In this document: positions 1-12,826 of the stretch, piece by piece | How the letters are laid out: each line of letters opens with the position of its first letter | How positions within the stretch are numbered: position 1 is the first letter of the stretch | IMG/VR virus record: IMGVR_UViG_2585427758_000013 | Length of the DNA stretch: 12,826 nucleotides | Direction: 5' to 3' (one strand) | Origin: a virus | Taxonomy: Duplodnaviria > Heunggongvirae > Uroviricota > Caudoviricetes | Notes under the pieces: generated by a model | What the model was told of the DNA's origin: nothing | What the model saw: the letters and a program-made list of their open reading frames with translations, nothing else | The model's database searches: none | Made by a program: the position numbers and the translations under genes

Positions 1-1293
<1,293 letters not shown>

Positions 1294-1414
1294 TACCCAA
1301 TTTTTCTGAATCTAAAAAGCGCCTGCGGGCGCTTTAAGTAGAGGTTTAATCATTTGAAAATAAATGGATTTTATTTTTAAGTGTCCATATAACGTCCATC
1401 TTTGAATGCAAAAA

Positions 1415-1448
1415 GCCCACAGTTTCTATGCTGTGGGCTTTGTTTTTT
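1415..1448 (+). terminator. rho-independent terminator downstream of serS
   Basis: Stem gcccacag (1415-1422), loop tttctatg, stem ctgtgggc (1431-1438), followed by tttgtttttt. A weaker GC hairpin gcgcc-tgcg-ggcgc at 1319-1332 sits directly after the serS stop. Confidence 0.6.
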
Positions 1449-1470
1449 GGTGTCCTCATGAGTGAGGGAA

Positions 1471-1504
1471 CCAAAAAGAAAACCCGCAGTTTTTACGCTG
1501 CGGG
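1471..1504 (-). terminator. rho-independent terminator for the minus-strand hok-like transcript
   Basis: On the minus strand: stem cccgcag / ctgcggg (1483-1489 and 1498-1504) followed by TTTTCTTTTT (complement of 1471-1482). Lies about 95 nt 3' of the hok-like stop. Confidence 0.5.
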
Positions 1505-1598
1505 CTTGTTGTTCACGTCAACTGGAAATAGGGTGTCTTTTCGACCTTTACCCTGGCAACCGATTGACGGGGAAGTTGCCTTCCCCGTCGCGGTTTCC

Positions 1599-1739
1599 TT
1601 ACTGCTTACACTGTAAGAACGCCGCAAACTCCGCTCCCCAGAAACTCATCCGTATTTCACACAGCGAACCGTGCAGCATCCAGATGATGAGGATTGCCGT
1701 CACGCAGAACGTGATGGCCGTAAGCGATTTTTGCGACAT
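1599..1739 (-). CDS. hok: Hok/Gef-family type I toxin (46 aa small membrane peptide)
   Basis: Hand translation of the minus strand from ATG at 1739-1737 gives MSQKSLTAITFCVTAILIIWMLHGSLCEIRMSFWGAEFAAFLQCKQ, stop TAA at 1601-1599. It has a hydrophobic N-terminal helix, the SLCEIR motif and an AAF...C-terminal tail as in Hok/HokA/RelF. AAGGAG Shine-Dalgarno 8 nt upstream. Not in the supplied ORF track (too short). Confidence 0.6.
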   Translation of the reverse strand: MSQKSLTAITFCVTAILIIWMLHGSLCEIRMSFWGAEFAAFLQCKQ

Positions 1740-1869
1740 AGCACTTGCTCCTTTTCCGGAGAGGCGCTAACCTTTCACTTGTCAAGGTAATGCGGTTAGG
1801 GCCTCGGTTAAACAGAGATGTTTTCCGGGGCCTTTCCACATCTGGCCTTCGGGTATTCCCTCCGACCAT
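1657..1869 (-). CDS. mok: Mok-like overlapping reading frame (70 aa)
   Basis: 70-aa ORF in a different frame that starts upstream of the hok-like gene and ends inside it, the arrangement seen in hok/mok/sok loci. No strong Shine-Dalgarno; the exact start is uncertain. Confidence 0.4.
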   Translation of the reverse strand: MVGGNTRRPDVERPRKTSLFNRGPNRITLTSERLAPLRKRSKCYVAKIAYGHHVLRDGNPHHLDAARFAV

Positions 1870-1929
1870 CAGCCGAAAGGCACCCGCGCGTAATCTATCG
1901 CGTTTTTGTTACTCCGGCAATTCTGCCTG

Positions 1930-2190
1930 TTAATTCTGAGATAAAGGCAAACTCATCTGATTGTTTCCCCTGTGTGAAGCTGGCAACTCATGCCACGGGA
2001 TACCTTCTGAAGAGTGAACGCCGGGGGCGTGTTTCGATGTGAATTTATGGAAAGCTTCCAGTGTTGAGAAACTTATGCCGCATTCCAGGTTGTTACACTG
2101 GTAATATTTTTTCCGTACGGTGTTTGAATCATTTTCCGAACGACTGGTGCGGATACGGGCAGATGCGCCACAAAGCGGACAACGGAACAT
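1930..2190 (-). CDS. ogr: Ogr/Delta-family zinc-finger late-gene transcriptional activator
   Basis: 86-aa ORF beginning MFRCPLCGASARIRTSR...YYQCNNLECGISF: the CPLC...QCxNxxC zinc-finger signature and MF.CPLC N-terminus of P2 Ogr. Lies directly downstream of gpD on the same strand, as in P2. Confidence 0.8.
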   Translation of the reverse strand: MFRCPLCGASARIRTSRSENDSNTVRKKYYQCNNLECGISFSTLEAFHKFTSKHAPGVHSSEGIPWHELPASHRGNNQMSLPLSQN

Positions 2191-2230
2191 AGCGACCTCC
2201 CTTAACGTGGTGCTGCCTATTCTAAGTTGC

Positions 2231-3340
2231 TCACTCTGTTTCCGCTATCCATTCCGGGATTTTTGCCTCAAGCTCAAGCTGCGTGGTAAAACCGCTGTTA
2301 TCAATGGTGTGCTCGGCTTTTGCAATGATCCAGTCCTGATTATCAATCTCGCTTTTAAATCCTGTTACCGTGCCATGCATTTCGGGGTAGAGTTCTGCAC
2401 GTCCACGCGCCAGCGTGATGGAGAATGATGCGGCTCCGCGTTGTAGTTGCTGCCACTTTGCCGCCGCTGCGCGTCTTGCTGTCTGCTCGTTCTGATAAGT
2501 CTTGCGTAACACAAACACATTGCCTTCCGCGCCTTCCATATAATCACCTTCACGGCTGCTGCTTTTCTCCTTTTTGGGTTTTGGCGGTTTACGGCGTTTC
2601 ACGCTGACTTTTTTCTTTTTCCCGTAATTAAGATCAAGCCAGTAAGCGCGTACCCCCGTATACGCTTCGCGGTCAGCAATGCGGAACTGATGGCGATCGC
2701 CGCTGCTGCGTGTGATGGCAAACGATGGCAACGGCTGGCCCTGTGCGTTCACGCCACCGCCGGGCATGATGAATAACAGATTACCGCTTTTTACCGTGGT
2801 GATTGCGCCCAGCATTTCCGCCATGCGCGTAAGGAAGGACATGTCGCTTTCTTCGGTCTGGTCGGCGTGGTCGATTTCGATATCCATCAGCATTTCGCTG
2901 ATTTGCGGTTTCAGACCATACCGATGAGCGATGGCGGATACCACACGCTCAACGGTCACATCATGCCAGGACACCTCACGTTTAACGTTAAATTCATCCC
3001 GAAAATCTGCGCTTCTGGCTGAAACAGTCAGCCTGTCCGGCGGTCCTTCGTGAGCGATTTCATCAACAATGTAAGTGCCTTTTTCTGTCAGCGGTTCTCC
3101 TTTCCAGCCAATGAGAACCGTCAGGCGCGCGCCCCGTGGCGGTAGCTGCAACTGACCATCCGCATCATCCAGCGTGATGGTGAGCTGGTCCGCCTCAAAT
3201 CCCCGGTTGTCGGTCAGTGACAGGCTCATCAGGCACTCTGCCACGCCTGACAGCGTTTTACCCTCCGCGAGAATATCAAAATCCGGCATTTTCACGGGGT
3301 CTGTGCCCTGACTGAGCAATTGCATGGTGGTGTCGGTCAT
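2231..3340 (-). CDS. D: P2 gpD-family tail protein (late control gene D)
   Basis: Translation carries gpD-family blocks (IDHADQTEESD, RAYW, KWQQLQRG, GFKSEIDNQDW). The ORF track extends to 3472, but the likely start is the ATG at 3340-3338 (MTDTTMQLL), which is preceded by GGAGGGAG. Confidence 0.85.
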   Translation of the reverse strand: MTDTTMQLLSQGTDPVKMPDFDILAEGKTLSGVAECLMSLSLTDNRGFEADQLTITLDDADGQLQLPPRGARLTVLIGWKGEPLTEKGTYIVDEIAHEGPPDRLTVSARSADFRDEFNVKREVSWHDVTVERVVSAIAHRYGLKPQISEMLMDIEIDHADQTEESDMSFLTRMAEMLGAITTVKSGNLLFIMPGGGVNAQGQPLPSFAITRSSGDRHQFRIADREAYTGVRAYWLDLNYGKKKKVSVKRRKPPKPKKEKSSSREGDYMEGAEGNVFVLRKTYQNEQTARRAAAAKWQQLQRGAASFSITLARGRAELYPEMHGTVTGFKSEIDNQDWIIAKAEHTIDNSGFTTQLELEAKIPEWIAETE

Positions 3341-3497
3341 CTGCTCCCTCCCTGTGCGGCATGGTCGCATGTGCGTGCGGAGGGGGTTACTGCTTTTTGT
3401 TGTCGCCGTGGCGGGAGAACGGCGCAGGGGGGAGATTACGCGCGTGGTGGGTGATGATTGTTGCCGAATCATTTAACGGATACAAGGGGCTGAAGCT

Positions 3498-4682
3498 ATG
3501 AGTGAAACTCGTTTTCATGGTGCCCGTGTTACGGAAAGTACCGACCTGGTAACAGCGATTAACGATGTTGATTCCAGCGTTATCGGTATCGTGGCAACGG
3601 CGGATGATGCGGACGCGAAGCTGTTCCCGCTGAACAAGCCCACACTGCTGACCCGCGTCAATGACGTGCTGGGAAAATGCGGGACAACGGGGACGCTTTA
3701 TCGTGCGCTTAAGGCCATCGCAGACCAGGTGAGCACAAAGGTGATCGTCGTTCGCGTGGCTGAACACAAAGAAGAAAACGGAAAGACGCAGGATCAACTG
3801 GTTATCGGTGGTTCTGAATCTGACGGCAGCTATACGGGGATGTATGCGCTGCTTGTTGCAGAGCAGGATGAAAGCATCGGATACCGTCCGCGTATTCTGG
3901 CCGCGCCGGAGCTGGACACGGAGGCGGTGACAAAATCCCTGTGCGTGATTGCGGGTAAACTGCGCGCGTTTGTGTATGCCGCATGTCATGGTTGTAACAC
4001 GATGGCTGAGGCGATTACCTACCGCCAGAAATTCAACGAACGTGAGGTGATGCTCTTATGGCCTGACTTCATCGCCTACAACCCGAAAAGTGGCAAAAAC
4101 GAAACGTTCCCCGCGCCTGCTTATGCGTGCGGCCTTCGTGCGTACATTGACCATGAGCAGGGCTGGCACAAATCGCTGTCCAACGTTCCGGTTAAAAATG
4201 TGCTGGGGATGTCGAGGCATGTGTTCTGGTCGTTACAGGCCGAAGACAGTGATGCCAACAGCCTCAACAACAAAGAAATCACGACCATTATTCGTCGTAA
4301 CGGGTTCCGCTTCTGGGGCAACCGCACACCGGAAACGAACGCCTACATCTTTGAGGTGTATACCCGAACCGCACAGGTGCTGGCTGATTCAATTGCGGAA
4401 GCGCAGTTTGAAACCATCGACAGTCCACTGACGCCTGCGAACGTGAAGGATGTTATCAGTGCCATCAGGGCAAAACTGGATTCGCTGGTTACTGCCGGGA
4501 AACTGATTGGCGCGGAGTGCTGGTATGACGTGGTGGATAACGGCACCACGGATTTACGTCAGGGACGTGTGCGTATTCGCTACAAATATACGCCCGTTCC
4601 GCCACTGGAAGACATGGAGCTTTACCAGACGTTTACTGATGAATTCTTTGGTCCCGCATTTGCGGTGCTGGGAGGTGCCTGA
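3498..4682 (+). CDS. FI: contractile tail sheath protein (P2 gpFI family)
   Basis: 394-aa ORF with sheath-family blocks (LRAFVYAA, WPDF, EQGWHKSLSNV, RRNGFRFWGNRT, YKYTPVPPLE). AAGGGG Shine-Dalgarno upstream of the ATG. Confidence 0.9.
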   Translation: MSETRFHGARVTESTDLVTAINDVDSSVIGIVATADDADAKLFPLNKPTLLTRVNDVLGKCGTTGTLYRALKAIADQVSTKVIVVRVAEHKEENGKTQDQLVIGGSESDGSYTGMYALLVAEQDESIGYRPRILAAPELDTEAVTKSLCVIAGKLRAFVYAACHGCNTMAEAITYRQKFNEREVMLLWPDFIAYNPKSGKNETFPAPAYACGLRAYIDHEQGWHKSLSNVPVKNVLGMSRHVFWSLQAEDSDANSLNNKEITTIIRRNGFRFWGNRTPETNAYIFEVYTRTAQVLADSIAEAQFETIDSPLTPANVKDVISAIRAKLDSLVTAGKLIGAECWYDVVDNGTTDLRQGRVRIRYKYTPVPPLEDMELYQTFTDEFFGPAFAVLGGA

Positions 4683-5194
4683 TGGCTGTACCAAAACATC
4701 TTCGCTTTTTTACGCTGTTTGTGGATGGTGAAAACGAAGTGGGTAAGGTGACGTCCGTCACTCTGCCTAAGCTGACGCGCAAAACCGACAGCTACCGGGG
4801 TGGTGGCATGATGGGGGCGGTAAGTATTGATCTCGGTCTGGACGACTCCGCGCTTGATGCGAGCTTTGTCATGGGGGGAGCTGTTCGTGCGCTGTTCCTT
4901 AAATATGGCGGCACGATTGACGGCACGCTGCTGCGTTTTGCGGGTGAATACTACACCGATGCAGAAAGCGATCTGTATGAAATCGAGATGCGCGGGCGTG
5001 TGACGGAAATTGATATGGGGGAGGCCAAACAGGGCGAAGCCACATCACACACTTACGCTGTCAAAAACACCTACTACAAGCTGAGCGTTAACGATCGCCC
5101 GCTGTGGGAAATCGACCTGTTGAACCACATCTACCGGAAGGACGGCAAGGACATTGTGCCCGATCGCATCCGTTCCGCGCTCGGGCTTGGCTGA
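4682..5194 (+). CDS. FII: tail tube protein (P2 gpFII family)
   Basis: 170-aa ORF directly after the sheath gene. Its start overlaps the FI stop (TGATG); GGAGGTG Shine-Dalgarno. Size and position match P2 FII. Confidence 0.88.
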   Translation: MAVPKHLRFFTLFVDGENEVGKVTSVTLPKLTRKTDSYRGGGMMGAVSIDLGLDDSALDASFVMGGAVRALFLKYGGTIDGTLLRFAGEYYTDAESDLYEIEMRGRVTEIDMGEAKQGEATSHTYAVKNTYYKLSVNDRPLWEIDLLNHIYRKDGKDIVPDRIRSALGLG

Positions 5195-5248
5195 TAAGTA
5201 ATATGCAGGCGGCGCAGTGCGTCGCCTCTGACTGAAAGGAGTTTCCTG

Positions 5249-5614
5249 ATGAAAGAGACGAAAAACATCGATACCGAAAACACGGTAGTTACTGACACTG
5301 TGAAAGAAACCAGTGAGCGTGGCGTAAAACTTACCCAACCAATTGAGCGAGGCGGCGAAAAAATCACGTATGTGGAGATCACCGGGGCTATTGAGCAGGC
5401 TGGATCTCTGCGAGATTTGTCGCTGTCTGATGTGCTGAATCTGAAAGCGGAATCCATGTTTACGCTGCTGTCACGCGTGACCTCGCCACGACTGGATGAA
5501 GTGACGATCAAAAAAATGGCATCCCGTGATTTTATTCAGTTATGTGTGGTTGCCGTAAATTTTTTGAGCGGTGCGGACTCTGGCGGGAAGAGCGAACAGG
5601 CGACGGAAGCCTGA
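5249..5614 (+). CDS. E: tail assembly chaperone (P2 gpE family), frame-0 product
   Basis: 121-aa ORF with AAAGGAG Shine-Dalgarno, located between the tube and tape-measure genes. Contains an internal slippery run (see 5560-5566). Confidence 0.8.
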   Translation: MKETKNIDTENTVVTDTVKETSERGVKLTQPIERGGEKITYVEITGAIEQAGSLRDLSLSDVLNLKAESMFTLLSRVTSPRLDEVTIKKMASRDFIQLCVVAVNFLSGADSGGKSEQATEA

Positions 5615-5778
5615 TCACGGTTGTGTGCTTTGAGCACATAGAAGACTTTGTGGCGGATATTGCCGCCATTTTTAACTGGTCGCCCGCCGAAATCTTCATG
5701 ATGACGCCCGGCGAAGTGGTTAGCTGGCGTGAGCGGGCGGCACTTCGCAGCGGGAATGCAGACAATGAAGACTCTTGA
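5249..5778 (+). CDS. E': E+E' fusion chaperone made by programmed -1 ribosomal frameshift
   Basis: A -1 slip on T6G (5560-5566) moves the E frame into ORF 5542-5778 (...NFF-ERCGLWREER...). The E' frame ends at TGA 5776-5778, overlapping the tape-measure start. Same logic as P2 E/E' and lambda G/GT. Confidence 0.65.
5560..5566 (+). other. slippery heptamer TTTTTTG (recoding signal for E/E')
   Basis: Six T followed by G at 5560-5566, in frame so that AAT-TTT-TTG can slip back one base. Confidence 0.6.
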
Positions 5779-8572
5779 TATCCGGGTCGCTTTCAGCGCC
5801 GTTGACAGGCTGACCCGGCCTGCCGAAAACGCCCGCCGCCTGATGGGGCAGTTTGGTGACTCCATCCAGCGAACGCAGGGGGCGATCAAAAATCTCGAGC
5901 GTCAGGCGCGATCATTTGAGCGCGCCCGCGACGCTGTCAGTAAAGCGGATGCGGGTATCGTGAAAGCACGACGCCAGCTTAACGCCCTTAATCAGTTACA
6001 ACGCACGGGTACAGTGCTCAGCGAAAAACAACAAAAGCTGATGCAGCAGTTAAGCACCCGGCTTGAACGCCTGAATGAATCGCGCACACGGGAAATTCAG
6101 AAAATGCGGGAGCTTGGCGGAGAGCTGAAACGCCACGGCATTTCCCTGACAGGCAGCGATAACACCATCCAGCAGGCCATCAGACGCACCGAACAGTACA
6201 ACAACCAGCTTGAACGCGAACGGCAGGCGCTTGCGCGTGTAACGCGGGCGCGTGAGCGGTATTCGCGCGCGCAGGAAACCGCGGGAAAACTGAAAACAGG
6301 TGGTGCGCTGGCAATTGGTGCGGCAGCGGCGGGCGGCTATGCTGCCGGGCGTTTTTTGCAGCCTGCGATCGGGTTCGGCAAAGAGATGTCCCGCGTTCAG
6401 GCACTGACGCGAATCGACAAAAACAGCCCGCAGTTTAAGGCGCTGCGTGAGCAGGCGTTAAAACTTGGCTCTGAAACACAGTTTACTGCGAGTGATGCCG
6501 CCAGTGGGCAGAGCTTTCTGGCAATGGCTGGTTTTACTCCGCAGGCCATTCAGGCCGCATTGCCCGGTGTTCTTAATATGGCGCTGGCAGGTGGCGTCGA
6601 ACTCGGCGAGACGGCGGATATAGGCTCCAATATCCTCACACAGTTCAACCTGACAGCCGATCAAATGGACCGGGTTGGCGATACGCTGACAGCGGCATTC
6701 ACCCGGACCAATACTGATTTACGCGCGCTGGGCGAAACCATGAAGTATACCGGTCCGGTTGCCGCAAAACTTGGTATCAGTCTTGAAGAAGCGGCGGCTA
6801 TGGCCGGGATGCTTGCCAATAATGGTCTTCGCGGAAGCGATGCTGGCACGGCCATGCGCGCAAGTCTGTCCCGCCTTGCATCACCGCCAAAAGCTGCGGC
6901 TGATGCACTGAAAGAGCTGGGGGTGTCAGTTGCTGACGCCAGAGGCAAAATGCGCCCGATGGAGGATGTGCTGCTTGATCTCTATAAGGCGACACAAAAA
7001 TACGGACAGGTGGACCAGGTCTCCTTCTTCAAGGACATCGCCGGAGAAGAGGCGTTCGTTGGTTTGCAGACGCTTGTTGCGGCGGCTGGTTCAGGAGAGC
7101 TGCAAAAACTGACCAGAGAATTGCAGGGGGCAAGGGGAGAGGCCGATCGCGTTGCAAAAGTAATGGCCGATAATCTTGATGGGGACCTGAAAAATCTCGA
7201 CAGCGCATGGGAAGGTCTTCGTATTCGCATCAGTGATCTGGTTGACGGTCCGCTGCGTTCTGTCACGCAGTGGCTCACGCGGGTGCTTGAAAAAATCACC
7301 TCGCTGGCGCAGGCCCATCCGGTACTGACGCGCCAGCTACTGATAGCAGGCGGTGCGTTGCTGGCAATGACTGCAACGATTGGCTCGTTGTCACTGGTTA
7401 TTGGGGTGCTTTACGGGAAGCTGGCCACCCTGCGTCTTGGTTTTGACATTCTTACCCGGTCAATGAATGTCGTCAGGGTGTTGCCTGCGCTGTGGGGAAT
7501 GGTGACGGGTTCCGTTTCTTTGCTGGGAGGCGCTATCGGGGCGCTGTTCAGTCCGGTTGGTCTTATCGTGGCTGCGCTTGCCGGAGCTGCCGTTCTTATC
7601 TGGAAATACTGGGATCCCATCAGGGCATTTTTTGCCGGGGTGTTCAGCGGGATTATGGAAAGGCTGAACCCGTTGCGTGAAACCTTTGAACGGTTTGGTC
7701 CTGTTTTTGACGCAATCGGAAGCGGGATCAGCCAGGTGTTTAACTGGTTTAAATCGCTGCTGTCACCGATGGAGTCCAGCAAGGAAACGCTGGATAAATG
7801 TACCAGTGCTGGCGAGATATTCGGTAACGCTCTTGGTGGCGCGCTACAGCTTGTTCTGACGCCTGCAAAAATGTTGCTGGATACGCTGGCGTGGATACTT
7901 GAAAAACTCGGTGTGCTTCCGGATGAAGCGGAAAGGGCGAGAAAGAAAATCGAAGACGCACAGCGTGCGGCCATTCTTCAGGACAAGGTTGCTCTGTTTC
8001 AGGGAGACATTGCGAAAATCAATCCGCCGAAGTCTGCGGAAAATGGCAATGGCACCGGAGGCGATAAACCCAAAGACAACAAACCGCTCACAGACAGCAA
8101 TACCGGCACGCTACGCAGACTCAGCAAAATTGCTGATAACACAGGTAAGCTGGTTGATGAGACAAAAAAACGTATTGGCCCCGGCGATATTGTCTTTAAG
8201 AACCTGCCCCGCGCACTTGCTGTTCGTGGGGAGTGGCAGGAGCGGAAGATTGCACAGGTCAGTAAGCCTGCCCCCGCAATGAATATCACCCCCGTGGTCC
8301 CGGCTCCGCTGCCTCCGGCGCTGGTCCCTGTTGTTGCGGCCAGCTCCCGCCCGGTGGCGGAGGCCATACGATCTCCAGTGGCATCAGTTCCTGTAACTTC
8401 CCGTAACCGGGAGCCTGTTGCCTCCGGATTTGGTGGTGAAATTCATGTTCATCTGCATAACGTTGTTACGCAGAATCCCCGCGAACTGGCGAAACTGGTC
8501 GGTGAAATGGTCAGGGCAGAAATGGAACGGCGCGCCCGTGCCGGGCGTGGCAGTTTTTACGATAAAGATTGA
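5756..8572 (+). CDS. T: tail tape measure protein (P2 gpT family)
   Basis: Very long ORF with a coiled-coil N-terminal third, central hydrophobic/Gly-Ala-rich segments and a Pro/Val-rich C-terminus, placed after E/E'. The ORF track starts at a GTG at 5729; ATGs at 5756 and 5765 are alternative starts, so the start is uncertain. Confidence 0.88.
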   Translation: MQTMKTLDIRVAFSAVDRLTRPAENARRLMGQFGDSIQRTQGAIKNLERQARSFERARDAVSKADAGIVKARRQLNALNQLQRTGTVLSEKQQKLMQQLSTRLERLNESRTREIQKMRELGGELKRHGISLTGSDNTIQQAIRRTEQYNNQLERERQALARVTRARERYSRAQETAGKLKTGGALAIGAAAAGGYAAGRFLQPAIGFGKEMSRVQALTRIDKNSPQFKALREQALKLGSETQFTASDAASGQSFLAMAGFTPQAIQAALPGVLNMALAGGVELGETADIGSNILTQFNLTADQMDRVGDTLTAAFTRTNTDLRALGETMKYTGPVAAKLGISLEEAAAMAGMLANNGLRGSDAGTAMRASLSRLASPPKAAADALKELGVSVADARGKMRPMEDVLLDLYKATQKYGQVDQVSFFKDIAGEEAFVGLQTLVAAAGSGELQKLTRELQGARGEADRVAKVMADNLDGDLKNLDSAWEGLRIRISDLVDGPLRSVTQWLTRVLEKITSLAQAHPVLTRQLLIAGGALLAMTATIGSLSLVIGVLYGKLATLRLGFDILTRSMNVVRVLPALWGMVTGSVSLLGGAIGALFSPVGLIVAALAGAAVLIWKYWDPIRAFFAGVFSGIMERLNPLRETFERFGPVFDAIGSGISQVFNWFKSLLSPMESSKETLDKCTSAGEIFGNALGGALQLVLTPAKMLLDTLAWILEKLGVLPDEAERARKKIEDAQRAAILQDKVALFQGDIAKINPPKSAENGNGTGGDKPKDNKPLTDSNTGTLRRLSKIADNTGKLVDETKKRIGPGDIVFKNLPRALAVRGEWQERKIAQVSKPAPAMNITPVVPAPLPPALVPVVAASSRPVAEAIRSPVASVPVTSRNREPVASGFGGEIHVHLHNVVTQNPRELAKLVGEMVRAEMERRARAGRGSFYDKD

Positions 8573-8578
8573 GGAGTC

Positions 8579-9073
8579 ATGGCCATGATGATGATCTACG
8601 GCATGTTTGTTTTTGAGCTGCGTACGTTGCCGCATCAGCAGTTACAGCAAAACAAAAGCTGGCGGCATGTGAAAAATGAACGCGTTAACCGTTCAGCAAG
8701 CTGGCAGTATATCGGGGCAGGCGATGATCGCATCGTTCTTTCTGGTGTGCTTTATCCTGAAATTACAGGTGGCGAAGTGTCGCTTTCGTTGCTGACCACG
8801 CAGGCATATACAGGACGCCCCTGGCCTCTGATTGATGGTGTCGGGCAGATTTACGGCATGTATGTCCTGACCGGAACGAATACGACCCGCTCCGAGTTTG
8901 ATCGCTACGGTAAGGCGAAAAAGATAGAGTTTTCACTGACTCTTGAACGCTGTGATGAGGATTTGCGGGAGCGCCTGCAATCCTCATCGTTCAGTGATAT
9001 GCTGTCCGGCTTCAAAGATAAGGTCACATCATCCCTTAACAGCGCGGCCAGCTCCGTTAAAGGGCTGTTTTGA
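8579..9073 (+). CDS. U: tail protein gpU family
   Basis: 164-aa ORF immediately after the tape measure. GAGGAG precedes it; ATGs at 8579, 8585, 8588 and 8591 are all possible starts. Confidence 0.8.
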   Translation: MAMMMIYGMFVFELRTLPHQQLQQNKSWRHVKNERVNRSASWQYIGAGDDRIVLSGVLYPEITGGEVSLSLLTTQAYTGRPWPLIDGVGQIYGMYVLTGTNTTRSEFDRYGKAKKIEFSLTLERCDEDLRERLQSSSFSDMLSGFKDKVTSSLNSAASSVKGLF

Positions 9074-9080
9074 TTAACGC

Positions 9081-9110
9081 AAAACCGCTAATGGTCAGAT
9101 TAGCGGTTTT
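9081..9110. terminator. bidirectional hairpin between convergent gpU and invertase
   Basis: aaaaccgctaat-ggtcag-attagcggtttt: a perfect 10-bp stem flanked by A-run and T-run. The invertase stop codon (9100-9102) lies inside the stem. Confidence 0.6.
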
Positions 9111-9699
9111 CATTTTCCTGAGTCTGCCTGGTTGTTTCTTCAGCCTGTATATCGCCTACAGGGTGATAACGATAAATCGTCGATATGCCGATGTCGTAAA
9201 TGATCGCCAGTTGTTTCCTGTCATGACCGTTTTTAATCAGCCTCGCTATTTGCTCGTGTTGTTCTTTTGTCAACTTCGGGCGACGTCCGCCAATGCGTCC
9301 TTGTGCGCGTGCTGCTGCCAGCCCGGCCAGTGTACGCTCTACAATTAATTCACGTTCCATTTCGGCTAAAGCCCCCATGACGTGAAAAAAGAAACGCCCC
9401 ATGGGTGTTGATGTGTCAATGCTGTCCGTCAGACTACGGAAATTAACACCTTTTTCCCGCAATTCCTCAATAAGCGTGATCAGGTGTTTCATACTTCTGC
9501 CCAGTCTGTCCAGCTTCCAGACAACCAGCGTATCTCCTTCTGATAGCGTTCTGAGCAGTTTTTTCAATCCCGGTCTGGCTGATTTCGTTCCGCTGATTTT
9601 ATCTTCAAAAATCAGTTCACATCCTGCGCAGTTCAGTGCATTGCGTTGTAAATCCGTGTTCTGGTCATTTGTTGACACACGAACATAGCCAATTTGCAT
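9100..9699 (-). CDS. serine-recombinase DNA invertase (Hin/Gin/Pin/Cin family)
   Basis: N-terminus MQIGYVRVSTNDQNTDLQRNAL with the catalytic Ser in the GYVRVST block, then TLVVWKLDRLGRSMKHL, FFHVMGALAEMERELI and a C-terminal helix-turn-helix. AGAGGA Shine-Dalgarno 8 nt before the ATG at 9699; the longer ORF to 9894 is probably an upstream extension. Confidence 0.9.
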   Translation of the reverse strand: MQIGYVRVSTNDQNTDLQRNALNCAGCELIFEDKISGTKSARPGLKKLLRTLSEGDTLVVWKLDRLGRSMKHLITLIEELREKGVNFRSLTDSIDTSTPMGRFFFHVMGALAEMERELIVERTLAGLAAARAQGRIGGRRPKLTKEQHEQIARLIKNGHDRKQLAIIYDIGISTIYRYHPVGDIQAEETTRQTQENENR

Positions 9700-9753
9700 A
9701 AAAAACATCCTCTTTGTTTCGTGAAAAATACATAGTTGGTATAGGTAGGGATA

Positions 9754-9779
9754 AAAACGAAAACGTTGGTTTGGGGGAA
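9754..9779 (+). other. putative invertase crossover site 1 (hix/gix-like, 12-2-12)
   Basis: aaaacgaaaacg TT ggtttgggggaa. The inner ...GAAAACG-TT-GGTTT... matches the AAAACC-AA-GGTTT dyad of hix/gix-type sites as I recall them. Confidence 0.55.
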
Positions 9780-10277
9780 GGTTCTGCGCTGCCTGTTGGT
9801 GTGCCCGTTCCGTGGCCCTCAGCAACACCACCAACGGGCTGGCTGAAATGTAACGGCGCAGCATTTTCTTCTGAAATGTATCCCGGACTGGCAAAGGCTT
9901 ACCCCACCAATAAATTACCGGATTTACGGGGTGAATTTATTCGTGGCTGGGATGATGGACGTAGTGCGGATGCGGGGAGAACAATATTATCCGCTCAAGG
10001 TGATGCCATACGTAATATCTATGGTGAGTTCAAGACTGTAAACACTGAAAATTATTCAATATGGGAATCAGTAGGCTCGTTTAAGGGGGCAGTGGTGCCT
10101 TTAAATTCCTCAACAAACAATAGTTATTTCTCCTTAGTCAGAAGTATGGTGACAGAAAGGACAGACGGCGCTGTTTACCCAAAAGTGATTGGCCTTGATG
10201 CTTCAAAAATTGTTCCAACTGCAAACGAAAACCGCCCACGCAACATTGCGTTTAATTACATCGTAAGGGCAGCATGA
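9754..10277 (+). CDS. silent tail-fibre C-terminal (receptor-binding tip) cassette 1; no start codon of its own
   Basis: Frame opens through crossover site 1 as ...ENVGLGEGSALPVGVPVPWPSATPPTGWLKCNGAAFS...PDLRGEFIRGWDDGR, then a unique core, then the conserved end NRPRNIAFNYIVRAA and stop. Sequence upstream of the site is invertase promoter, not fibre coding. Confidence 0.75.
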
Positions 10278-10296
10278 AAACGTTGGTTTGGGGGAA
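10271..10296 (+). other. putative invertase crossover site 2
   Basis: agcatgaaaacg TT ggtttgggggaa. It spans the stop codon of cassette 1 and the first codons of cassette 2. Confidence 0.55.
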
Positions 10297-10821
10297 GGCT
10301 CTGCACTGCCCGTTGGTGTACCTGTTCCGTGGCCCTCAGCCACTCCACCAACGGGCTGGCTGAAATGCAACGGCGCAGCATTTTCTCCTGAAGATTACCC
10401 CAAACTGGCACAGGCTTACCCCGCGAACAAATTACCGGATCTACGGGGTGAATTTATCCGTGGCTGGGATGATGGACGTGGCTTGGATGCTGGGCGTGCC
10501 TTGCTAAGTCTTCAGGATGACTCTTTTGAAGCGCACAGGCATGAGTCCTTTTTTTATGCGGGTATTTCACGTAATGAGATCCCATTAAAAAATCTTCCAA
10601 GTTCAGACGAGATGCTGACTTTAAGTTCCACAACTAATGCCTTGTCCCCGGACGATATTGATGCCACCAACTCGTTAATTGGTAATGACGATTACAACTG
10701 TCTTATCGAAGGGAATAAAAATAACAAACGAACAGCGACAGGACTGAGTACCAGTATTGTCGGCACAGCAGAAACACGCCCCCGCAACGTTGCATTCAAT
10801 TACATCGTAAGAGCCGCATGA
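10288..10821 (+). CDS. silent tail-fibre tip cassette 2 (gene segment; frame is open from 10267 through site 2)
   Basis: Same conserved N-module and C-terminal TRPRNVAFNYIVRAA around a unique core carrying an HRH motif. The M in the ORF track is a TTG inside the crossover site, not a real start. Confidence 0.75.
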   Translation: MGEGSALPVGVPVPWPSATPPTGWLKCNGAAFSPEDYPKLAQAYPANKLPDLRGEFIRGWDDGRGLDAGRALLSLQDDSFEAHRHESFFYAGISRNEIPLKNLPSSDEMLTLSSTTNALSPDDIDATNSLIGNDDYNCLIEGNKNNKRTATGLSTSIVGTAETRPRNVAFNYIVRAA

Positions 10822-10840
10822 AAACGTTGGTTTGGGGAAA
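10815..10840 (+). other. putative invertase crossover site 3
   Basis: cgcatgaaaacg TT ggtttggggaaa (one substitution in the outer right half). Confidence 0.55.
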
Positions 10841-11260
10841 GGCTCTGCGCTGCCCGTTGGTGTGCCCGTTCCGTGGTCCTCAGCAACACCACCAACGGGC
10901 TGGCTGAAATGTAACGGCGCAGCATTTTCTTCTGAAATGTATCCCGGACTGGCAAAGGCTTACCCCACCAATAAATTACCGGATTTACGGGGTGAATTTA
11001 TCCGTGGCTGGGATGATGGGCGCGGGATTGATGCGGGACGTACCCTGCTTTCAGGGCAGGATGGTACAAGTTTTTCTCATTACGGAGGTAATTTCGACAT
11101 TGGGTCTGGTCATTCAATCAATAACTATGACCAAATTGTTTCTAACCAACCAAGCTTTTCCCGTTTTTCATTTGCAGGACCTTCACGAGGTGATGGGGTC
11201 AATTATGTAACCATTCGTCCTCGTAATATTGCGTTTAATTACATCGTAAGGGCAGCATGA
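10832..11260 (+). CDS. silent tail-fibre tip cassette 3 (gene segment)
   Basis: Conserved N-module (nearly identical in DNA to cassette 1), short unique core, conserved C-terminal RPRNIAFNYIVRAA. Confidence 0.75.
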   Translation: MGKGSALPVGVPVPWSSATPPTGWLKCNGAAFSSEMYPGLAKAYPTNKLPDLRGEFIRGWDDGRGIDAGRTLLSGQDGTSFSHYGGNFDIGSGHSINNYDQIVSNQPSFSRFSFAGPSRGDGVNYVTIRPRNIAFNYIVRAA

Positions 11261-11279
11261 AAACGTTGGTTTGGGGGAA
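11254..11279 (+). other. putative invertase crossover site 4
   Basis: agcatgaaaacg TT ggtttgggggaa, identical to site 2. Confidence 0.55.
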
Positions 11280-11747
11280 GGCTCTGCACTGCCCGTTGGT
11301 GTGCCTGTTCCATGGCCCTTAGCAACACCACCAACGGGCTGGCTGAAATGTAACGGTGCAGCATTTTCTTCTGAAATGTACCCCAAACTGGCAAAAGCCT
11401 ACCCCACTAATAAATTACCGGATTTACGCGGAGAATTTATCCGTGGCTGGGATGATGGGCGAGGAATTGATGCGGCACGCGCTTTATTGAGCATTCAAAA
11501 CGGGATGTTGGAAAAACACCGCCATATTGTTGTAGCTAACGATGGATATGACACAAAAGATGAATGGGAGTTGGCTACGATTTTCAAAAAAACATATACA
11601 CAAGGCAGGGGGCTTGATGCCACAAATACAGGAGGGAGTTTGATTCCATCACCAACGCTTCATTCACGAGGAAGTATTGGTAACACAGGTGGTAGTGAAA
11701 CCCGCCCCCGCAATATTGCATTTAACTATATCGTGAGGGCGGCTTAG
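11271..11747 (+). CDS. silent tail-fibre tip cassette 4 (gene segment)
   Basis: Conserved N-module, unique core with HRH motif, conserved C-terminal ETRPRNIAFNYIVRAA. Stop TAG at 11745-11747, convergent with the tfa stop 6 bp away. Confidence 0.75.
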   Translation: MGEGSALPVGVPVPWPLATPPTGWLKCNGAAFSSEMYPKLAKAYPTNKLPDLRGEFIRGWDDGRGIDAARALLSIQNGMLEKHRHIVVANDGYDTKDEWELATIFKKTYTQGRGLDATNTGGSLIPSPTLHSRGSIGNTGGSETRPRNIAFNYIVRAA

Positions 11748-11753
11748 TTATAT

Positions 11754-12365
11754 TCAACTGGCTGCTGCCAGTGGTATTTCCGGCAAGTTGATATCTGGTA
11801 CCATGTTTATATCCATTGCGTTCAGCGCGTCTATATAATCCAGCACGGCATTAAGCCGGGTGGTTTCTGCCTGCGTCAACTTCCGCCCGGCCTGCAACTT
11901 CAACTGAATCAGACTTATGGAAGCCATTGCCGCATCAGCCAGTGACTGGCGCTTGGTTTCTGCCGCTTCTACTGCGGCACGATGTTGTGCCTCAGTATCT
12001 GTCACCCATTTTTCACCATCCCATTTATCGTATGGTGTTAACGGGGCGATAGTGGTTGTAGTTTTCGGGTAGTCACCCAGCGCCGTGATTTCTTCGGTGT
12101 TTCCCGTGTCAGTGCTATAGACGGTTTCACCACGATGGTCTGGCGCATACTCCCATGAACTTAAATTCTCCGAACGGCGGATAGCATAGCCCGCTTTATG
12201 TGCGCCCGGGGCATCTAAACAGGAATTTGCCGGAATACCGACACCCACAGCAAGATATTCAGTTGATTCGGAAATATATTCCCGTGTCTCACCATCATAG
12301 TTATAAACGACGATGTTTCCTGCCTGTACGGCAATAAGGTCATCATTTAATATCGCGTTATTCAT
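11754..12365 (-). CDS. tail fibre assembly protein / chaperone (Tfa; P2 gpG or Mu U-like)
   Basis: 203-aa ORF whose ATG overlaps the stop of cassette 5 (TAATG), i.e. translationally coupled. C-terminal region (...LNAVLDYIDALNAMDINMVPDINLPEIP) resembles the conserved Tfa C-terminus. Confidence 0.8.
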   Translation of the reverse strand: MNNAILNDDLIAVQAGNIVVYNYDGETREYISESTEYLAVGVGIPANSCLDAPGAHKAGYAIRRSENLSSWEYAPDHRGETVYSTDTGNTEEITALGDYPKTTTTIAPLTPYDKWDGEKWVTDTEAQHRAAVEAAETKRQSLADAAMASISLIQLKLQAGRKLTQAETTRLNAVLDYIDALNAMDINMVPDINLPEIPLAAAS

Positions 12366-12826
12366 TATGCGGTTCTCACAATATAATTGAAGGCAATATT
12401 GCGTGGGCGGTTTTCATTCCCATCTGAGGATTCCGTTCTGTATTGACTGGTAAATCTACCGTTAATTGCACCTTGCCGGACGGCGTTATCTGTCGACAAC
12501 AGACTATCCCCTCTTTTGTCATTTGGCACCAGTACCGTGTTATCCCACGCATCCCATGACCGAATATTATGATAATGACTTCCTGTTAACCACCCCTGCA
12601 TGCTTAAGATGCCCCTTCCGGCATCCACCCCGCGCCCATCATCCCAGCCACGGATAAACTCACCGCGTAAATCAGGTAATTTTAACGTTGGGTAAACCTT
12701 TGCCAGATTTGGGTACATTTCAGAAGAAAATGCTGCACCGTTACATTTCAGCCAGCCCGTTGGTGGTGTGGCTGAGGGCCATGGAACAGGCACACCAACG
12801 GGCAGTGCAGAGCCTTCCCCCAAACC
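12365..12826 (-). CDS. expressed-position tail-fibre tip cassette 5; 3' part of the tail fibre gene, 5' end beyond the window
   Basis: Same conserved N-module (GEGSALPVGVPVPWPSATPPTGWLKCNGAAFS...) and C-terminus (RPRNIAFNYIVRTA) around a unique core with an HYH motif. The reading frame continues upstream off the window, so this is the C-terminus of a longer H-like fibre gene. Confidence 0.8.
   Translation of the reverse strand, partial: GLGEGSALPVGVPVPWPSATPPTGWLKCNGAAFSSEMYPNLAKVYPTLKLPDLRGEFIRGWDDGRGVDAGRGILSMQGWLTGSHYHNIRSWDAWDNTVLVPNDKRGDSLLSTDNAVRQGAINGRFTSQYRTESSDGNENRPRNIAFNYIVRTA
12815..12826 (-). other. right half of putative crossover site 5 (inverted orientation; core and left half lie beyond the window end)
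   Basis: The window ends ...ttcccccaaacc, the reverse complement of ggtttgggggaa. The core dinucleotide would be the next two bases past the window. Confidence 0.5.

Follow-up and report, generated by a model that had tools for sequence, protein, structure and literature searches.

In the G segment of phage Mu, the C segment of P1, the P segment of e14 and phage P88, the C-terminus of a tail fiber is switched by a DNA invertase that acts at 26-base-pair (bp) sites with a 2-bp core, and a recombinational enhancer is positioned in the invertase gene. There are two sites, and each of the two tips is paired with a chaperone gene of its own (Sv-U and U'-Sv'), so that a chaperone always lies behind the expressed tip. 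Min of p15B and the P1-like phage-plasmids, as portrayed in papers citing the original descriptions, combines an invertase of the Din family with several sites in both orientations and alternative fiber 3' ends, which allows multiple inversion (Sandmeier et al. 1990; Iida et al. 1990, cited in PMC5903667 and PMC6906374). In the P2-like "shufflon" prophage of enteropathogenic Escherichia coli E2348/69, three sites and three alternative C-termini give four isomers, which sequencing and polymerase chain reaction found to coexist in clonal cultures (Goldberg et al. 2014, PMC4272514). Here, we describe the corresponding locus in a 12,826-nucleotide (nt) stretch of DNA (IMG/VR record IMGVR_UViG_2585427758_000013; hereafter, the window), in which serS (1–1293) runs into a P2-like E. 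coli prophage. The locus is a Min/Cin-type multiple-inversion region of this serS-adjoining prophage, with five alternative 3' ends (cassettes C1 to C5) of the tail fiber gene H around a single tail fiber assembly chaperone gene, tfa. It is thus a five-cassette member of a kind already known from Min-type systems and from the three-cassette E2348/69 locus; new here are the reading of the conserved cassette flanks as one split collar domain, a correction of the comparison with Mu and P2, gene conversion between cassettes, and a puzzle over the orientation of tfa.

With the E2348/69 prophage, the window shares the prophage family, the site layout and the invertase gene in the matched region, and the C3-C4-tfa-C5 block is 97.7% identical over the part covered; the E2348/69 locus that we examined fits the published one by site count and segment sizes. 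On the other hand, the window has five sites, five cassettes and 48 isomers, and its prophage sits at serS, as in strain 266917_2. The P1-like phage-plasmids share these collar-type cassettes, with one tfa in the middle (88–93% DNA identity), but on another replicon and behind a P1 S-like constant part of ~1000 amino acids, compared with the P2 H-like 383 here. Some 3' ends of p15B are built from more than one segment, whereas every cassette here ends in its own stop codon; for Min, the comparison draws on citing papers and on P1-like plasmids in databases. One such plasmid, NZ_CP196102.1 (positions 1–7634), holds ~13 collar-type cassettes, one tfa and one invertase; some of its cassettes are duplicated, with WP_072756900.1 on both strands, and a 471-nt cassette is likewise duplicated in another locus, L002.

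The two-tip systems of Mu, P1, e14 and P88 resemble the window in their related invertase, sites and switching of the fiber C-terminus, and in the position of an enhancer that is putative in the window, but their tips lack the collar and have no His-x-His (H-x-H) motif at the tip, whereas the window has five gp37-type tips and one tfa. Phage P88, which has the same Xuanwuvirus backbone, carries a classical Mu-type tip pair with two chaperone genes. Carotovoricin Er and the P2-type tailocin fiber loci of Photorhabdus and Xenorhabdus, as far as PMC4272514 cites them, also have an invertase-switched fiber C-terminus in a P2-type tail cluster; these are tailocins, whereas relatives of the present locus have the head, lysis and tail modules in full. 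Genomes of Pectobacterium, Photorhabdus and Xenorhabdus are rich in collar-type cassettes that end in the same C-terminus as those here. The tips themselves resemble those of T4 gp37 (2XGF) and gp12 (1OCY, 1H6W/5LYE) in having a collar, an H-x-H directly after it and a C-terminal ...N-I-A-F-N-Y-I-V-R-x-A strand. However, gp37 has a long needle, seven H-x-H motifs and ~150 residues between the flanks, compared with inserts of 52–87 residues and one H-x-H or none here, and T4 has no inversion system and uses gp38/gp57A in place of a Tfa-family chaperone.

We consider it very probable that the window contains an invertible H-gene 3' end with five collar tips of the gp37/gp12 type, swapped by a Cin-like invertase (Table 1). 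The anatomy of the locus, its homologies, the pattern of selection, the in-frame use of every cassette and the inversion between assemblies carry this reading. In the proposed mechanism, the invertase, a serine recombinase, would recombine the one inverted 26-bp site against any of the four direct sites, and the inversion would put one of the five C-terminal cassettes in frame behind the constant 383-residue fiber shaft. Each cassette would be a complete receptor-binding tip, possibly for a separate receptor, in which the chain enters the collar (the N-module, PF07484), runs out into a variable distal core and returns, so that the last strand, RPRNIAFNYIVRAA, rejoins the collar. The collar domain would have to fit the shaft, trimerize and probably initiate folding; with the two flanks forming one domain with these duties, they would be kept at the protein level while the insert would be free to vary. 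In C2, C4 and C5, one H-x-H per chain at the collar exit would bring together six histidines in the trimer, which would suffice for a single metal site like those of gp37 (Fe) and gp12 (Zn), and C1 and C3 would represent other tip classes without the motif.

Table 1. Features of the invertible region and its surroundings (positions in the window).
Feature	Position	Strand	Details
ogr, D		-	prophage genes after serS
FI, FII, E, T, U		+	late operon FI-U
Hairpin	9081–9110		between tail gene U (+) and the invertase gene (-); 12-bp stem, then T-rich run
Serine DNA invertase, Hin/Gin/Cin/Pin/Min (Din) family	9100–9699	-	Pfam Resolvase and HTH_7
Stretch matching the P1 cin recombinational enhancer	9610–9681	-	nt 19–90 of the invertase gene
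Crossover site 1	9754–9779	+	AAAACGAAAACG TT GGTTTGGGGGAA
Cassette C1	9768–10277	+	169 amino acids; no H-x-H; "GDAIRNIYGEF" class
Gene-conversion tract, C3-type sequence in the C1 N-module	9795–9958	+	C1 nt 28–191, ~165 nt; C3 counterpart at 10856–11019
Crossover site 2	10271–10296	+	AGCATGAAAACG TT GGTTTGGGGGAA; C1 stop codon inside left half
Cassette C2	10285–10821	+	178 amino acids; H-x-H (HRH) at 10534–10542
Crossover site 3	10815–10840	+	right half GGTTTGGGGAAA, one mismatch from other sites
Cassette C3	10829–11260	+	143 amino acids; no H-x-H; "DGTSFSHYGGNF...GSGHSIN" class
Crossover site 4	11254–11279	+	
Cassette C4	11268–11747	+	159 amino acids; HRH at 11517–11525; convergent with tfa; no crossover site after it
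tfa, sole tail fiber assembly chaperone gene	11754–12365	-	Pfam Caudo_TAP, E = 9e-31; between C4 and C5
Cassette C5	12365–12826	-	153 amino acids; HYH at 12569–12577; cut by window end
Crossover site 5, right half	12815–12826	-	inverted relative to sites 1–4; reverse complement of window end = GGTTTGGGGGAA...; remainder beyond window

Why would five tips with unlike cores share the same two ends? The preliminary description of the sequence, made from the letters and open reading frames, had reported five cassettes with near-identical N-modules, a common C-terminus and cores that differ in length and sequence, and our analysis bore this out: all five lie at the coordinates given there and are open, without a frameshift. 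The N-modules (first 77 residues) have 58 invariant columns and are identical at 66–71 of 77 positions in pairs, and the last 14 residues, RPRN(I/V)AFNYIVR(A/T)A in all five, are identical at 12–14 of 14. The cores, 52–87 residues long, show 40–48% DNA identity under forced global alignment, which marks them as unrelated. Every N-module matches the Pfam tail collar domain PF07484 (52–56 bits against a Pfam gathering cut-off of 24), and at E ~1e-14 chance is not at issue. Furthermore, in sequence searches of the PDB, every cassette matched the T4 gp37 tip (2XGF) in two places, one being the collar (chain positions 27–103) and the other the last 24 residues (219–242, ...NIAFNYIVRLA). Both flanks also match T4 gp12 (full-sequence E 2e-6 to 0.015), where the C-terminal stretches, which end in NISLNYIIK, are individually weak, and the phiTE short tail fiber 9cuy_c (C1 against residues 154–303, E = 1e-25). 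Translated searches (tblastn) with the cassette family gave matches in 989 phage records; among many others, these include T4-like gp37 and gp12, lambda Stf and some P2-like phages. In a gp37-type tip, the chain leaves the collar, forms the needle and the head (the tip), and returns to the collar. Because the flanks match this very tip, the N-module and the C-terminus are most likely the two halves of one domain, with the core as an insert, and the chain would return to the collar in these cassettes as well.

In keeping with this reading, AlphaFold2 monomer models of C3 and C5 are confident for the collar and the final strand only; on the folds of the cores they give no information. Their mean predicted local distance difference test score (pLDDT) is 58.7 for C3 (53-sequence alignment A2) and 54.8 for C5 (alignment A3), with 76 and 83, respectively, in the last block and 34–47 in the cores. 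The C3 model superposes on 2XGF at 1.8 Å over 50 columns (Foldseek), a match confined to the collar. The collar–insert–return-strand module of the phiTE short tail fiber lies at residues 154–305 of 554, with ~250 residues after it; thus, a collar-tip module need not be C-terminal. The "collar domain" of the Ur-lambda paper is another structure, at the N-terminus of Stf, and is irrelevant here.

The H-x-H motif had been reported from C2, C4 and C5 only, and this is what we found: HRH, HRH and HYH, with none in C1 or C3. The C2 motif aligns with the first H-x-H of gp37 (AHSHS), where such motifs coordinate iron (PMC12609058). We took a census of 121 cassettes from 86 loci across Enterobacterales, in which the numbers of H-x-H and other tips are not frequencies because the loci were ranked by similarity to C1, C3 or C5; in 29 of 29 cases, the motif follows the collar at one fixed distance. 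Likewise, H84 and H86 of C5 are kept without exception in 53 sequences homologous to C5 and other H-x-H tips. At the collar exit, the tips sort into at least three sequence classes: H-x-H, "GDAIRNIxG" (including C1) and "x-A/G-T-x-hydrophobic-S/T" (including C3). The suggestion of at least two structural classes of tip therefore holds at the sequence level; at the level of the fold, the models are confident only where all tips share the collar and last strand.

The likening of the H-x-H cassettes to Mu S/P2 H-type fiber tips, on the other hand, is wrong. An hmmsearch with filters off gave no match (E > 0.3) between the N-module profile and any of four proteins: P1 S, P2 H (last 248 residues), Mu S and Mu S'. 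Of the sequences searched, only P1 S has an H-x-H, a single one at residue 125 of 988, far from the tip. The C-termini of all four proteins read ...INGxWYN... (the Mu/P2/P1-type ending, ...RPIQKxINGTWYNV...), and the Mu S-Tfa structure was absent from the PDB search results for the cassettes. The relatives of these tips are, rather, the T4 gp37 tip and gp12.

The invertase carries the Resolvase (PF00239, E = 2e-51) and HTH_7 (PF02796, E = 1e-12) domains; over 186 residues, it shares 74% identity with P1 Cin. The enhancer-like stretch agrees with the annotated P1 enhancer at 57 of 72 nt, and when P1, Mu and the window are compared, 48 columns do not vary. It may serve as a recombinational enhancer; because it also codes for conserved residues, its similarity to the P1 enhancer is no proof of function. 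Every cassette is preceded by a 26-bp site, in four direct copies and one inverted copy at the window end. The site AGCATGAAAACG TT GGTTTGGGGGAA has the same 2-bp core as cixL, CAATCCTAAACC TT GGTTTAAGAGAA, and agrees with it at 9 of 12 positions in the right half; the sites also resemble gix. The right half-site codes for G-L-G-E, the first residues of every cassette, and the stop codon of the preceding cassette lies inside the left half-site. The overlap of the site with coding sequence is limited to four codons at the start of an N-module and one or two at the end of the cassette before it. In relatives, the constant part of the fiber ends in ...GVLDYL directly 5' of the same right half-site. 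Left half-sites are placed at the invertase flank, at the constant H part and behind C1, C2 and C3. With a right half-site 5' of every cassette and the left half-sites placed in this way, any pairing gives an in-frame fusion; enumeration of the inversions yielded 48 reachable isomers that express five tips. The R64-type shufflon (Rci tyrosine recombinase, sfx sites, pilV) was not matched, as the window has a serine invertase and a tail fiber target.

Are all five cassettes in use? The constant H part (383 residues) is fused in frame to C1 in GPEC1031 (locus L005), to C2 in PO06021 (L003) and to C5 in the E2348/69 assembly CP059840 (L004). By synthetic junction queries, H::C3 is contiguous in 10 of 15 listed complete genomes, among them the E2348/69 reference, and five listed genomes have H::C4, one of them at 100% identity. 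Furthermore, two E2348/69 assemblies differ by a 2,005-bp segment that is inverted at 99.95% identity. In strain 266917_2 (L089), this prophage also sits at serS and has all five cassettes (99.2–99.8% identity), in a different isomer: relative to the window, the C4-tfa-C5 block is inverted and the order of C2 and C3 is swapped, which places the two three inversions apart. These results indicate that inversion takes place in this locus family, on evidence from E2348/69 and 266917_2 rather than from the window's own strain.

Several points weigh against our reading of the locus. The window ends inside site 5, and the C5-H junction would have the form seen in relatives with the same five cassettes. 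The cores fall below pLDDT 50 in the monomer models, and both the fold differences among tips and the return of the chain rest on homology. 9CUY is the sole PDB entry that matches a tip without H-x-H, and it is modeled, according to its paper, at residues 3–92 only; it therefore offers no template, and we dropped 9cuy_c as a structural template for the C1 class. Lastly, tfa lies antisense to H in 24 of the 48 isomers, for which the model gives no explanation.

This orientation problem is built into the locus. The start codon of tfa overlaps the C5 stop codon (TAATG), and C5 is the sole cassette translationally coupled to tfa. Because the C4-tfa-C5 block has no internal site and is bounded by oppositely oriented sites, every inversion flips tfa, and by the enumeration of isomers, C4 can be expressed only in the tfa-antisense state. 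Yet C4 is intact, ~98% conserved and in the expression slot of several genomes, and tfa is antisense to H in four of the eight related loci with a visible constant H (PO06021, 266917_2, the E2348/69 reference and the P1-like plasmid NZ_CP196102.1). One of three solutions would therefore be required: Tfa is supplied whatever the orientation, some tips fold without Tfa, or the orientation of tfa is a second switch in fiber assembly. We offer this proposal with low confidence; if true, any of the three would set this locus apart from the fiber switching described for Mu, P1 and P2, and would imply that the collar and the C-terminus act as a universal adaptor by which one chaperone handles many unrelated tips. 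Tfa may be supplied from a promoter inside the block or by whichever of the convergent late operons (V-H or FI-U) faces tfa. A promoter scan gave two sites against 6.2 expected, with no significant promoter traveling with tfa, and a scan of the window for TGT-N12-ACA, which we take to be the form of the P2 Ogr activator sites, gave two matches against 3.3 expected and thus no support for an orientation-independent tfa promoter. One of these matches, TGTTTCGTGAAAAATACA at 9715–9732, falls within the 54 bp that separate the invertase start from site 1; it is at chance level and serves as a lead only.

Could the collar and the C-terminus be kept mainly as a common platform on which Tfa docks and folding starts? 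Such a role would add to the invertible collar-tip reading without excluding it, and we regard it as a tentative possibility, on the unlikely side. One tfa serves five cassettes here and ~13 in the P1-like plasmid, and fiber folding is thought to begin near the C-terminus, with the chaperone joining the C-terminal ends (PMC3004832). Lambda Stf carries the same collar domain. Montag and Henning reportedly found in 1987 that lambda Tfa can substitute for gp38 in T4 gp37 assembly. On the other hand, in the Mu S-Tfa complex that North et al. described in 2019, the chaperone reportedly contacts the distal tip, whose counterpart here is the variable part, and a tfa that is antisense to H in half of the isomers fits poorly with a general docking role. 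With such a platform, one chaperone could serve all five unrelated tips.

A need at the DNA level, with the flanks kept as an extended substrate for the invertase or for homologous recombination and homogenized by gene conversion, is a very unlikely explanation of their conservation, although gene conversion itself is real. The preliminary description had proposed comparing flank and core divergence for signs of it, and such signs are present. The C1 tract differs from the window's own C3 at two positions, compared with 14–17 from the C1 orthologues of other strains, and the relation is reversed after nt 192. In orthologous cassettes across strains, the N-module diverges more than the core in 13 of 13 comparisons, and the cores are 93.6–100% identical. 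C1 and C3 share an identical run of 124 nt (9817–9940 and 10878–11001); their description as almost identical in DNA is right for the first ~190 nt, with five differences, but not for the full 231-nt N-module, at 89.6% identity.

However, the paralogous N-modules are only 83–90% identical in DNA, with dS (synonymous divergence) of 0.27–0.63 and a mean ratio of nonsynonymous to synonymous divergence (dN/dS) of 0.22. The C-terminal 42 nt are 74–90% identical in DNA, against 12–14 of 14 residues in protein, and the last 14 codons show 74 synonymous versus eight nonsynonymous differences, summed over pairs. The 26-bp site spans only a few codons at either end of a cassette, as described above, and C4 and C5 retain the C-terminus though no crossover site follows them. 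T4, which has no invertase, has both flanks in gp37 and weaker forms in gp12, and the C-terminal motif is kept in 109 of the 121 Enterobacterales cassettes. Judged from these patterns of substitution, selection on the flanks acts at the protein level, and the conserved C-terminus, as had been suspected, looks like a requirement of the protein.

RefSeq presents each silent cassette as a separate "phage tail protein" coding sequence of 142–177 amino acids that starts at a TTG within the crossover site, and the Prokaryotic Genome Annotation Pipeline (PGAP) calls each of them. It is nevertheless highly improbable that each cassette is an independent small gene expressed alone: the called start is the TTG of GGT TTG GGG in the site and lacks an upstream Shine-Dalgarno sequence; in the absence of a shaft, a collar and tip cannot attach to the baseplate; and one database copy (P0151) is annotated as [quoted passage not shown]. 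That the four cassettes not joined to H are pseudogenized remnants of old fiber genes can practically be dismissed: they lack a ribosome-binding site and a normal start, their annotated starts being those same TTG codons, but they are open and without frameshift, their cores are conserved across strains, for each type at least one complete genome has an in-frame fusion to H, segments are inverted between assemblies and isomers coexist in culture (PMC4272514), which together refute decay. The cassettes of the invertible region are a working repertoire, not decay products.

The locus thus packs a large host-range repertoire into ~3 kilobases, with five tips here and ~13 in related P1-like plasmids. 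Variation would be confined to an insert of 50–90 residues while the collar scaffold around it stays fixed, and site-specific inversion exchanges the unit as a whole. The points after ...LLSxQ and before RPRNIAFNYIVRAA are natural candidates for grafting in the host-range engineering of phages and tailocins. For annotation, the separate genes of RefSeq are to be read as silent cassettes, and the tips as T4 gp37/gp12-type, not Mu/P2-type. The behavior of tfa, in turn, raises a small question on chaperone supply.

The same cassettes, joined via ...ENLGLGEGS..., also end short fibers of 234–250 amino acids with different N-terminal parts (P0002, P0015 and P0043). Because the cassettes occur on unlike N-terminal parts, the family is common to several backbones (P2 H-like, P1 S-like and short lambdoid-type). 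Some short fiber proteins with these tips are named "integrase" in the source databases (P0032, P0067 and P0074).

The gene order at 1930–9110 is unlike that of P2, in that D and ogr are opposite in strand to FI-U. The late operons FI-U and V-H converge on the invertible region, and the hairpin between them, judged by its stem and T-rich run, looks like a terminator in both directions. This layout of the D/ogr strand and the converging operons is common to phage P88 and E. coli relatives. Scans of the whole window found no tRNA gene and, with Rfam, no Sok or other RNA family. In the interval between serS and ogr (1294–1930), the near-identical 266917_2 prophage has an annotated Hok/Gef toxin gene, which corresponds by alignment to ~1599–1739.

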